Shown here: piece by piece, positions 9,609-14,309 of the stretch
How positions within the stretch are numbered: the stretch's first letter is position 1
Layout: every line of letters begins with the position of its first letter
From: Candidatus Methylomirabilota bacterium
Lineage (GTDB): Bacteria; Methylomirabilota; Methylomirabilia; Rokubacteriales; CSP1-6
Assembly: GCA_046726415.1 (NCBI GenBank)
Contig: JBKPAK010000235.1
Location: 1 to 17,501, forward strand
DNA: 17,501 nt
Direction of reading: 5' to 3'
The notes under the pieces: generated by a model
What the model was told of the DNA's origin: nothing
What the model saw: only the letters and a program-made list of their open reading frames with translations
The model's database searches: none
Program-made: the position numbers and the translations under genes

Positions 9609-11229
<1,621 letters not shown>

Positions 11230-11244: not shown

Positions 11245-12522
11245 TCATCGGGAGGCACGGCGCTTCTCGCGCATCGTGGCTGCAAGCGAACCTGATGTGG
11301 GTCCAGGCGCCGGCTGGCGCATGGCCAACCCCACGACTCCGCCCGATAGCAGGGTGAGAGCCGCCACGACATGGATGGCCGCTTCAAGATCTATCGCGTC
11401 GGCGACCAGCCCAGAGAGTAGCGCGCCAATGGCGTACCCGAGGTCGCGCCAGAACCGGTACACGCCGAGACTCGACGCGCGCCACGTCGGATGGGCGTGA
11501 TCGGCGATGGCCGCCAGGAGTGTCGGGTAGACCATCGCGGTACCGAGCCCCTGGAGGGCGGCGGCGAGCAACCAGGCGCCGTACGCTGGCATCAGCACGG
11601 TGAGCCAGATGCCCACGGCCTGGACGACCATGCCCCACGCGATGAGACCTTTCCGGCCGACGCGATCCGACAGCATGCCGGTCGGGATCTGCAACAGGCC
11701 CCACACGATCGGGTAGACGGCCTTGACGATTCCGATGCGCTCGACGTCGAGTCCGTGGGCGCTGAAGAACAGCGGGTAGAGGCCCCAGGACATCCCGTCG
11801 TTGAGATTGTTGACCAGCCCGGCCTGACAGGCGGCGAAGAGGCTCACGTTGCCGAGCGTGGTCACGTAGAAGATGCGGCCGAGCGACAGCGGATGAGTGG
11901 GCATCGTCCCGGAGGTGGCCTCGAGCTTCACGTAGTCGCGAGTCTCTCGGACCAGGAAAATCGACATCAAGAGTCCGGCGACCGCGATGGCGATCCCGAG
12001 ATAGAACGGCTGCGGACGCAGCGCGTAGTGACCAGCGATGTACCCCGTCACCCAGGCCATTGTTCCCACCGCGAAGTAGCCCGCGAACTCGTTGAGGCCG
12101 AGGGCCAGACCCCGGCGGCGCGGGCCCACGAGGTCAATCTTCATGATCACCGTCATCGACCACGCCATCGCCTGGCTGGCGCCCAGGAGCACGTTAGCGA
12201 GGTCGATCCACCACCACACGGGCGCGTAGATGATGAGGAACGGCACGGGCAGCGCGAAGAGCCATCCCACGACGAGGACCGGCTTGCGCCCGATGCGGTC
12301 GGACAGCCGCGCCGCCACCAGGTTCAGCACAGCCTTCGACACCCCAAAGCTGACGATGAACGACGTGATCGCGGTCTTCGAGCTGAGACCGAACTCCTGC
12401 TCGCCCAGGAGCGGGAGCACGGTTCGCTCCAACCCCACCATCGCTCCCACGAAGGCGTTAAGCAGGACGAGGAGTGAGAACTGCGGGAGGTTCTCCCGCA
12501 GTCCGAGGCGGAGCTCAGTCAC
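11245..12522 (-). CDS. MFS transporter
   Basis: 425 aa with about 12 TM and MFS motif A twice (RLSDRIGRK, GMLSDRVGRK). LGLRENL.QF.LLV..NAFVG.MVGLERT subfamily. GTG overlaps the upstream stop (GTGA). Confidence 0.95.
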   Translation of the reverse strand: MTELRLGLRENLPQFSLLVLLNAFVGAMVGLERTVLPLLGEQEFGLSSKTAITSFIVSFGVSKAVLNLVAARLSDRIGRKPVLVVGWLFALPVPFLIIYAPVWWWIDLANVLLGASQAMAWSMTVIMKIDLVGPRRRGLALGLNEFAGYFAVGTMAWVTGYIAGHYALRPQPFYLGIAIAVAGLLMSIFLVRETRDYVKLEATSGTMPTHPLSLGRIFYVTTLGNVSLFAACQAGLVNNLNDGMSWGLYPLFFSAHGLDVERIGIVKAVYPIVWGLLQIPTGMLSDRVGRKGLIAWGMVVQAVGIWLTVLMPAYGAWLLAAALQGLGTAMVYPTLLAAIADHAHPTWRASSLGVYRFWRDLGYAIGALLSGLVADAIDLEAAIHVVAALTLLSGGVVGLAMRQPAPGPTSGSLAATMREKRRASR

Positions 12523-13256
12523 TCCAGGCCGAGGTTGCGCCGCCGGTTCTCCGCGAAGGCCTCCGGCTGCGGCGGCAGCCCTTCCAGCACGAACTCGACG
12601 AAGTCGGCCTTCGACCCCCTCTGCAGCGCCGGGTTGAAGCGCCGCTCGAAGCCGATCGTGGAGCCGGGCTTGCCGCTCAACCCCTTGCCACAGGCGGCCC
12701 CACCGAAGTGCGCCGGGAAGACCTCGATGTGATCCGGCAGCCGGAGGAGTGCCCCGTGGAGGCTCTCGTAGAGCTGCTCCGCCTGGGCGACCTCGACGCC
12801 CTCGCCGAGCAGGTCCGGTCGCCCCACGCCGCCCGAGAAGAGCGTGTCGCCGGTGAGCACGAACCAGGGCTCCGGGGCGCGCGTCCGGTCCGTGACCAGA
12901 AGAGAGGTGCTGTCCGGCGTGTGGCCCGGAGTGTGGAGCACCGTCACGCGGACATTCCCCAGCTCGTGCTGCTCGCCGTCGGCGACGTCGACATGCGAGA
13001 ACACGACCGGCGCCGACTGGTGGATGAGCACCGGGGCCCCGGTCAGCGCGGCGAGCCGGCGCGCCCCGGAGACGTGATCGGCCTGGACGTGCGTCTCGAA
13101 GATGTGGGTGATGCGCATGGACTTCTGGGCTGCCGCTTCGACGTAGGCCTCGACGTCAGGCTGTGGATCCACCACAGCGCAGGTGCCCTGGCCCCCTCAG
13201 CCGAAGAGATAGCTGGCGCAGCCGGTCGTGGCGTTGAGGAAATGGCGGAAGATCAT
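12519..13256 (-). CDS. MBL-fold persulfide dioxygenase-like (CstB/ETHE1-like) protein, probable selenoprotein (UGA at codon 20), 245 aa
   Basis: AAGGAGG RBS, ATG 13256, MIFRHFLNATTGCASYLFG(TGA 13199-13197)GGQGTCAVVDP, in frame with the 12519..13175 ORF. Motifs THVQADH, HTPGHT, TGDTLF.GGVGRPDL, PAH.GGAACGK, STIGFERRFN. Confidence 0.85.
13157..13196 (-). promoter_or_regulatory. Putative bacterial SECIS element
   Basis: After the UGA come 18 nt, then a perfect 7-bp stem GCUGUGG/CCACAGC closing the loop UGGAU. The loop starts 25 nt after the UGA and has G at its second position. Confidence 0.7.
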
Positions 13257-13333
13257 GGCCCGGCCTCCTTCCCCTGTCGGGGTCTTCTTCCGCTTGATAG
13301 CGCCTGGATCGACATAAGCGCCAATACTGTTTT

Positions 13334-13364: not shown

Positions 13365-14309
13365 ATGACGCTCCGACAACTGGAAGTCTTCCTGGCCGTG
13401 GCTCGGGCCCGGAGCTATCGCCGTGCCGCCGACACCCTGCACACCAGCCAGCCCGCGCTCTCGCAACACATCCACGAGCTGGAGAGCGATCTCAAGGTGA
13501 AGGTGTTCGACCGGCTTGGACGGAGCGTCGCCCTCACCGAGGCTGGCCGGCTTCTCGAGACCCACGCGCTACGCGTGTTCGGCGCGCTCGACAGCGCGCG
13601 CGAGGCCATCGGGGAACTGCAGGGCCTCCAGCGAGGCTCCCTCGTGGTCGGGGCGAGCACCACGCCAGGGATCTACGTCCTCCCCAGCGTGATCGGCCAC
13701 TTCCGTCGGCAATATCCCGGTGTCGACCTGCATCTGAGGATCGCCAACTCACGGCTGATCGAGGACCGCATCCGCAACAACGAGCTGGATCTGGGCGTGG
13801 TCGGCGGTCATGGGTTGGCGGCCGGCGAGGAGTGCTTGGTCACCGGCCTGGACGACGAGCTCGTGTTGATCGTGTCGCCCCGGCACCGCTGGGCGCGGCG
13901 TCGCACGGTGGCGCCCACCGATCTCGCCAGCGAGCCTCTCCTCATGCGCGAGGAGGGCTCAGCGAGCCGTGACGTGACGGTGCGCGCCCTGCTCCAGGCC
14001 GGCGTTCGCTACCAGACCGCCATGGAGCTGGACCACACCGAGGCCATCAAGCAGGCGGTGATGGCGGGGCTGGGCGTGGCCTTCGTCTCGGTGCACGCCG
14101 TCCGCCGGGAGGTGGCGAGCGGGCATCTCGCGGGAGTGCGCCTGACGGGCGTGCCGATCCGCCGTCACTTCCACGTCATTCACCACGAAGCGCGCACGCT
14201 GGGGCCAAGCGCACGTGCCTTCCTCCAGATGCTCGCGATGCCGCCGCGCGAGTCCCGGTCGAAACAGACATCACATCGCGCGCCGCCTGACCGGGTCGCT
14301 GTCCGCTAG
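13365..14309 (+). CDS. LysR family transcriptional regulator (CysL/CmpR-like substrate-binding domain)
   Basis: MTLRQLEVF..S..RAA..L..SQPALSQHI..LE HTH; GASTTPGIYVLP, LMREEGS..R, TEAIKQAVMAGLGVAFVS. Confidence 0.95.
   Translation: MTLRQLEVFLAVARARSYRRAADTLHTSQPALSQHIHELESDLKVKVFDRLGRSVALTEAGRLLETHALRVFGALDSAREAIGELQGLQRGSLVVGASTTPGIYVLPSVIGHFRRQYPGVDLHLRIANSRLIEDRIRNNELDLGVVGGHGLAAGEECLVTGLDDELVLIVSPRHRWARRRTVAPTDLASEPLLMREEGSASRDVTVRALLQAGVRYQTAMELDHTEAIKQAVMAGLGVAFVSVHAVRREVASGHLAGVRLTGVPIRRHFHVIHHEARTLGPSARAFLQMLAMPPRESRSKQTSHRAPPDRVAVR

Follow-up and report, generated by a model that had tools for sequence, protein, structure and literature searches.

How is an in-frame UGA near the start of an otherwise open reading frame decoded: does it end translation, or does it specify selenocysteine (Sec)? 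The question is raised by a stretch of 17,501 nucleotides (nt) from a Candidatus Methylomirabilota bacterium (Methylomirabilia; Rokubacteriales; CSP1-6), namely positions 1 to 17,501 of contig JBKPAK010000235.1 in assembly GCA_046726415.1, which we refer to as the window. On its minus strand (13256-12519) lies a gene with a TGA at codon 20, which an earlier examination of the letters alone (the sequence-only reading) had taken to encode a probable Sec-containing protein of the metallo-beta-lactamase (MBL) fold, similar to persulfide dioxygenases. We conclude, with a probability of about 0.87, that this is a genuine selenoprotein gene, in which UGA codon 20 would be recoded by SelB and tRNA-Sec by way of a hairpin within the gene, the predicted product being a dioxygenase of the CstB type. 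For Sec insertion at codon 20 taken on its own, we are slightly more confident still.

The layout of the gene can be read directly from the minus strand. A strong Shine-Dalgarno sequence, AAGGAGG (13270-13264), is separated by a spacer of 7 nt from an ATG start (13256-13254). There follow 19 sense codons and then, as codon 20, the TGA (13199-13197), after which the frame stays open up to a TGA stop at 12521-12519, giving 245 residues. This translation agrees exactly with the ribosome-binding site, start, 19 codons, TGA and open frame to 12519 described by the sequence-only reading, and the arrangement C13-x6-U20-x5-C26 that it gave for the protein is correct. The program-made list of open reading frames (ORFs) contains only a 218-amino-acid (aa) ORF (12519-13175) that begins at a GTG inside the hairpin, so the gene had indeed been shortened there, as was suspected. 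The same shortening pervades the databases: among the best homologues listed, 118 of 120 are recorded at 199-219 aa, truncated at the N-terminus and mostly named hydroxyacylglutathione hydrolase.

The strongest evidence on the decoding of codon 20 comes from comparison across genomes. A six-frame search of the window's genome and 60 relatives yielded 21 matches of full length, the one in the window's genome among them, which are 66-100% identical and each have one in-frame TGA, and a further group of matches at 53-57% identity. We inspected 30 loci from this search. The TGA is codon 20 in all 22 loci that bear one, in the context GC(A)(S/A)Y(L/V)(F/L)G-TGA (21 of 21 if L026, which comes from the unpublished genome G011, is set aside), and the other eight, which are paralogues fused to a rhodanese part, all have Cys at this column. 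A pattern scan of species-representative genomes returned 34 loci, of which 33 were inspected and one, a 31%-identical archaeal fragment (L087), was left out; TGA occupies codon 20 in 27 of the 33, one locus starts at residue 26, and the remaining five are distant homologues (40-49% identity) with Cys (2), Ser (2) or Asp (1). The titles of the matching records name metagenome-assembled genomes (MAGs) of Rokubacteria, Rokuibacteriota or Methylomirabilota, with a few bins labeled otherwise. As these collections partly overlap, we pooled the 45 sequences of the clade to which the window's gene belongs (clade 1) into 40 distinct ones, leaving out L058 (the same record as L025), L075, L079 (frameshift) and L086 (70 aa only). 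TGA at codon 20 is invariant in 40/40 of these, across 66-100% protein identity. The column itself is Cys in the two closest proteins of known structure, S. aureus CstB (PDB 3r2u) and 3tp9, according to HMMER alignments, which bears out the earlier claim that the TGA falls on the Cys of a SYLIGC motif; the expected contrast of TGA in other genomes and Cys in homologues is likewise found, with many genomes on the TGA side and the fused paralogues on the Cys side.

The gene is widespread and patchily distributed. Of 251 genomes sampled across the phylum, at least 62 have a match that bears a TGA, and at 58-62% identity such matches extend into families of the class; here the column position of the TGA was checked for the genomes already inspected and not for those newly added. 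Queried with the window's protein, the other two species of its genus (G001 and G002, 72% and 95% complete) gave no orthologue of the Sec gene, their best matches being fused paralogues at 45% and 39% identity; the Sec gene is therefore patchy even inside the genus. Two damaged copies were seen. The copy in a long-read MAG (L079, 3001-3740) has a frameshift a few codons past the TGA, and a copy of a second Sec clade (L092, G045:C145) is disrupted about 75 codons in; its genome holds an intact clade-1 copy as well.

Codons 1-19 evolve as coding sequence. Across the 40 distinct sequences their amino acids are kept while third positions vary; at Phe3, Arg4 and Ala14, for instance, third-position entropy is 0.9-1.2 and that of the first and second positions is 0. 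The 30 nt 5' of the invariant ATG are nearly unconstrained (entropy 1.4-2.0), save for a purine-rich stretch of lower entropy at -12 to -6, in the region of the Shine-Dalgarno sequence. Because coding-type constraint fills codons 1-19 and the region upstream is unconstrained, we regard both a pseudogene and a separate leader peptide as excluded by this comparison.

A putative selenocysteine insertion sequence (SECIS) begins 18 nt past the UGA. It is a hairpin at 13178-13160 of the minus strand, predicted by folding and supported by comparative conservation, with a 7-bp stem (GCUGUGG/CCACAGC, 13178-13172 pairing with 13166-13160) and the loop UGGAU. The 19-nt hairpin is the same in all clade-1 loci compared except L039, in which a U-A pair has become C-G through changes in both arms, that is, in a compensatory manner. 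To gauge the constraint on synonymous sites, we took codons 1-150 of the 40 distinct sequences, among which 67 are degenerate and encode a conserved amino acid. Six of these, codons 27-32, lie in the hairpin, and their entropies at the third position are 0.17, 0, 0, 0, 0 and 0, against a mean of 1.03 for the 61 conserved codons outside the hairpin; third-position variation is wholly lacking in 5/6 conserved codons within it and in 0/61 outside (Fisher p = 6e-7, a test whose codons and sequences are only partly independent). At the same codons the eight Cys paralogues, taken as a control, show entropies of 0.95-1.5, with neither a freeze nor a hairpin.

The second Sec clade (clade 2: L053, L088, L089 and L090; 243 aa) has an element of its own. 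The peptide at its hairpin site is STVVDP, as against AVVDPQ in clade 1, and the common VVDP is spelt with other codons. Its hairpin is different and equally invariant, with a 6-bp stem and the loop GGUC, 14 nt past the UGA. In bacterial SECIS elements a G is expected in the apical loop under the bSECISearch model, and the loops of both clades have a G among their first positions. Two distinct RNA hairpins overlying almost identical peptides are to be expected of an element that SelB binds, and the conserved structures are likely SECIS elements.

The genome encodes the machinery that such recoding would need. Its assembly comprises 7.6 Mb in 352 contigs and is 98% complete. A tRNA-Sec scores 71 bits against a cut-off of 47 and is called SeC, anticodon tca, by ARAGORN; selA (592 bits) and selB (374 bits) adjoin it on the same contig. 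The selD gene (336 bits; L019 1441-2520, contig C223) has one in-frame TGA of its own, located in an N-terminal glycine-rich motif, ...CAG-U-ASK..., which we take to be the catalytic Cys/Sec position of selenophosphate synthetase; by this sequence criterion the host's SelD is itself predicted to be a selenoprotein. All of selA, selB, selC and selD, for which the sequence-only reading had asked the genome to be checked, are thus present in the host. The presence of selA was considered as a discriminator and set aside as uninformative, since 55 of 61 relatives have a detectable selA with or without the Sec gene.

The TGA is also found in independent sequence data. Part of the stretch occurs in 20 public runs, which come from 19 studies and are for the most part soil metagenomes, and we checked the bases at the TGA in the assembled contigs of two DNA runs and two RNA-library runs from 4 studies. 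In 4/4 runs contigs span 13197-13199, with no other base among the rows listed, and neighboring variable codons in those runs do show variants.

With these results we can weigh what else the TGA might be. An error of sequencing or assembly, with TGC as the true codon, is practically negligible as an explanation: independent assemblies concur, and at 13197-13199 the contigs of four runs from four studies agree in the rows listed. The frameshifted L079 and the broken clade-2 copy L092 could be cited for a nonsense mutation in a gene undergoing decay, and the sequence-only reading had itself named a decaying island as the alternative. This is scarcely tenable in the face of an invariant TGA in 40/40 distinct sequences with purifying selection on either side of it; the comparison across genomes refutes it. 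The idea that the UGA closes a 19-codon leader peptide, the true enzyme being the 218-aa product from the GTG at 13175, is favored by that in-frame GTG and by the databases, in which 118 of the 120 homologues listed are called at 199-219 aa. We consider it very improbable. Residues 1-27 correspond by homology to the opening two strands of the CstB and 3tp9 fold, and form strands 2-8 and 13-20 in a confident model, whereas the 218-aa product would begin in strand 3; the GTG lies within the conserved hairpin and has no ribosome-binding site of its own; and leader and body are always in one frame, with the TGA exactly at the Cys column.

There are also points that weigh against Sec insertion as such. 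Selenium in the protein is a prediction from gene sequences, and the UGA might instead be read through as Cys, Trp or Gly, standard amino acids that an altered code or near-cognate decoding would insert. Against this, TGA is also the terminator of the same gene, the genome has the full Sec machinery with a Sec-type SelD, and a structure selected at the RNA level lies as far from the UGA as a bacterial SECIS should; read-through of this kind therefore seems quite improbable to us. The hairpin has undergone just one compensatory change within clade 1, and no Rfam family matches it (two chance matches only at 13050-13300 with E <= 10; nothing at gathering score in the whole window). The 76-nt fold after the UGA is no stabler than that of shuffled sequences (z = -0.75), so the hairpin stands out by cross-genome comparison and not by thermodynamics alone. 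No selA was found in 3 of 26 genomes with a Sec form (G011, G013 and G028; 95, 88 and 93% complete), and the contigs from RNA libraries confirm the presence of the sequence and not its transcription.

What enzyme, then, would carry this Sec? Pfam finds Lactamase_B only (1.7e-13), and the best NCBIfam match, TIGR03413 (GSH_gloB, glyoxalase II), scores 87.3 bits against a cut-off of 200.8; the Blh bifunctional sulfur transferase/dioxygenase family NF040641 stays at 54 bits against 625. Among proteins of known structure, HMMER gives the best matches as 3tp9 at 7e-51 and S. aureus CstB at 3e-45. An AlphaFold model built from a 33-row alignment (mean predicted local distance difference test score, pLDDT, 88; predicted template-modeling score, pTM, 0.89) superposes on 3tp9 with a template-modeling (TM) score of 0.94 at 40% identity, on CstB with 0.92, on ETHE1-type dioxygenases with 0.85, and on glyoxalase II with 0.72 and a root-mean-square deviation of 8.4. 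The iron triad H56/H112/D137 aligns with the CstB iron ligands H56/H119/D145, R146, F140 and L193 align with CstB R154, F148 and L205, and C189-G190-K191 aligns with C201-G202-K203, the mobile Cys-Gly loop of CstB (the C189 codon is at 12692-12690, minus strand). In alignment A1, H56, H112, C189 and G190 are invariant and D137 nearly so; among 150 family representatives, Cys is kept at C189 in 142 and H56, H112 and D137 in 146, 149 and 142. The model has its lowest confidence at residues 181-200 (pLDDT 64-66), as expected of a mobile loop. The active-site motif is H56-V-Q58-A-D60-H61 (HxQxDH) and not the HxHxDH of glyoxalase II, and the protein stops at residue 245, where the next gene is a transporter, leaving it with no pseudo-rhodanese or rhodanese domain and no equivalent of CstB C408. 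The protein is accordingly predicted, from its alignments and its model, to be a single-domain persulfide dioxygenase of the CstB type that uses non-heme Fe(II), and the database label hydroxyacylglutathione hydrolase or glyoxalase II is a misnomer. The earlier description of a persulfide-dioxygenase-like MBL protein stands in this narrower form, as a domain of the CstB type without its rhodanese half.

Comparison with known proteins sharpens this assignment. With CstB the window's protein has in common the MBL fold, the iron triad, the Cys-Gly-Lys loop and the residue-20 column; it differs in having Sec where CstB has Cys at position 20, 245 aa without pseudo-rhodanese and rhodanese where CstB has 444 aa, Gln58 in place of a His58 that hydrogen-bonds the axial water, and His61 in place of Phe. 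Its best match in both sequence and fold, the beta-lactamase and rhodanese protein of Alicyclobacillus acidocaldarius (3tp9), is fused, about 470 aa long, and has Cys instead of Sec at the column. The fused paralogues from the same bacterial family (L045-L052) and from the same genome (C320 and C327) are 54-58% identical over the dioxygenase domain and share the Cys-Gly loop, but are 456-470 aa long, with a rhodanese active-site loop, His58 and no hairpin; they have Cys20, except for the host genome's own two copies, C320 and C327, with Asp and Ser. ETHE1 and other type I persulfide dioxygenases (4chl, 4ysb and 2gcu) have the same fold (TM 0.85) and iron triad; an Asp is aligned at column 20 in 4ysb, and the alignments of 4chl and 2gcu do not show the column. 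According to the available text of a 2026 preprint (PMC12934615), CstB alone has the Cys-Gly loop, which ETHE1 lacks, and ETHE1-type enzymes use free glutathione persulfide. Glyoxalase II (hydroxyacylglutathione hydrolase) shares the MBL superfamily, and its motif, score and fold match differ.

How Sec forms are related to Cys forms was examined with a tree built by a quick method. All Sec forms group together, their sister being a stand-alone Cys form, and clade 2 is nested among clade-1 members from the bacterial family to which it belongs. The sole intruders among the Sec forms are two metagenome proteins, P0002 and P0040. These are 246-aa Cys20 proteins whose N-termini come from a different, Cys-type lineage, and whose C-terminal ~190 and ~110 residues are near-identical to the window's protein; from this mosaic pattern we regard them as probably chimeric contigs, or else products of natural recombination of a Sec form with a Cys form. 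A count of two Cys/Sec changes on the tree is due only to these mosaic or chimeric sequences and was given no weight.

The position of Sec20 in the fold bears on what it might do. It sits at the tip of the hairpin formed by beta2 and beta3, at a distance from the metal, and is not a metal-site residue; in the model, which has strands at 2-8, 13-20 and 25-29, residue 20 ends the strand 13-20 just before the turn. We considered two residues as partners and rejected both. Gln58 is not specific to Sec, as the stand-alone Cys forms P0124, P0125, P0142 and P0150 have it and the Sec form L033 has His58. C26, included in the layout of the sequence-only reading, is present here and is not an obligatory selenenylsulfide partner, being missing in 3/40 clade-1 sequences and throughout clade 2; the geometry of a beta-hairpin would, moreover, place the side chains of residues 20 (strand 13-20) and 26 (strand 25-29) on opposite faces.

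The aligned residue in CstB offers a hint of function. In the available text of the preprint (PMC12934615), which gives the roles of H56, H119, D145, C201 and C408, CstB C20 is persulfidated or sulfonated in crystals and its significance is called unknown. The same text describes how the Cys-Gly loop mimics glutathione, is persulfidated and is oxidized at the iron to an S-sulfonate, after which it swings about 27 Å to the persulfidated rhodanese C408, releasing thiosulfate; C201 and C408 are both indispensable. Because C408 cannot be dispensed with in CstB and is absent here, another nucleophile would have to load or unload Cys189. We propose Sec20 as the relay, since it is the only residue upgraded to Sec and its counterpart in CstB takes up sulfane sulfur or sulfonate. 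By this analogy Sec20 may serve as a chalcogen relay in place of the missing rhodanese cysteine, a tentative suggestion that we hold to be possible and rather unlikely. More doubtful still is a version in which Sec20 would functionally replace the whole CstB rhodanese module, a selenol, or its Se-S persulfide, on a neighboring subunit's beta2-beta3 hairpin receiving or resolving the S-sulfonate of the Cys189 loop. Both must contend with the distance of CstB C20 from the iron of the opposite protomer, about 29 Å (PMC12934615, available text), and with the variability of column 20, which in 143 covering representatives is Cys in 60, Asp in 38, Ser in 14, a gap in 29, Asn in 1 and Ala in 1. Because the column is not universally Cys, residue 20 is not needed for core catalysis. 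Cys is found there in 24/40 proteins of up to 300 aa and in 26/76 of more than 400 aa, a weak hint that Cys20 may be commoner in short proteins, as short entries may be fragments and rows are related.

The Sec gene has conserved neighbors. Downstream, a gene for a major facilitator superfamily (MFS) transporter (12522-11245, minus strand; Pfam MFS_1, 9e-42) starts at a GTG that overlaps the Sec gene's stop codon (GTGA). A LysR-family regulator (13365-14309, plus strand; Pfam HTH_1 and LysR_substrate) is divergently oriented on the other side. Among NCBIfam models it matches NF040786, "selenium metabolism-associated LysR", best; the score of 233 bits (E = 3.6e-69), just short of the cut-off at 250, suggests a near relative and not a certified member of that family. 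In a tblastn survey of 50 Sec-form loci, six of them duplicated between collections, a divergent LysR gene was found in 47 and a downstream MFS gene in 47, with the misses mostly at contig ends. LysR, Sec enzyme and MFS transporter form a conserved module.

Other genes of the window were assessed as well. Between the MFS gene and a cysteine desulfurase gene lies a DUF6196 gene (11229-10771, minus strand; Pfam, 4.7e-42). The desulfurase gene, NifS/IscS-like (10800-9609, minus strand; TIGR03402, 348 bits), has an apparent frameshift, with the N-terminal ~60 residues in the frame of ORF 10604-11077 and the rest in that of 9609-10814, reflecting either an assembly error or a pseudogene. Neither gene is kept beside the Sec gene in relatives, and both were rejected as members of the module. 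At 5775-5691 (minus strand) ARAGORN calls an 85-nt tRNA-Pro (cgg), where the Rfam gathering scan of the window finds no tRNA; this call is doubtful, or the tRNA atypical.

Taken together, the mechanism that we propose for the selenoprotein would run as follows. The hairpin 18 nt past the UGA would direct SelB and tRNA-Sec to recode codon 20. The Cys189 loop would be persulfidated and oxidized at the iron, by analogy with CstB. Sec20 could take sulfane sulfur from low-molecular-weight persulfides, or could resolve the Cys189 S-sulfonate, a task that falls to the rhodanese Cys408 in CstB. The MFS transporter, presumably co-transcribed, might move the substrate inward or the oxidized sulfur product outward, and the divergent LysR regulator might control both the Sec gene and the MFS gene.

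Our literature search found no bacterial selenoprotein of the MBL-fold or persulfide-dioxygenase type. The terms lactamase, glyoxalase, dioxygenase and hydroxyacylglutathione go unmentioned in the searched text of the bacterial selenoproteome papers PMC12013277, PMC5029168, PMC1976440 and PMC1088965, a search that did not extend to their supplementary family lists. Within the literature searched, the nearest published case is SelTryp of kinetoplastids (PMC1557815). From the available text of that paper, SelTryp (Trypanosoma, Leishmania) is likewise a selenoprotein with an MBL-fold domain, but it has two rhodanese domains in addition, is eukaryotic, has its Sec in a C-terminal CxxU tail outside the MBL domain, and depends on a different type of SECIS. 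The selenoprotein gene is well supported, and its family is absent from the catalogues searched; Sec/Cys replacement, recoding through SelB and SECIS, and the CstB-type enzyme were already known.

The finding would add an MBL-fold sulfur-oxidizing enzyme to the bacterial selenoprotein families, and it corrects a systematic annotation error, which has left N-terminally shortened entries in the databases. The use of Sec by evolution would mark CstB C20 as a chemically important residue. If Sec20 does replace the rhodanese module, the protein would be a minimal, one-domain, selenium-dependent enzyme of persulfide clearance, and a hidden function of the conserved C20 in CstB-type enzymes would be revealed. 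The window's gene is predicted to encode a soil-bacterial enzyme of sulfur detoxification, and in Rokubacteria and related Methylomirabilota, which are abundant soil bacteria, selenium would be commonly used in the metabolism of reactive sulfur, as at least 62 of the 251 sampled genomes suggest.

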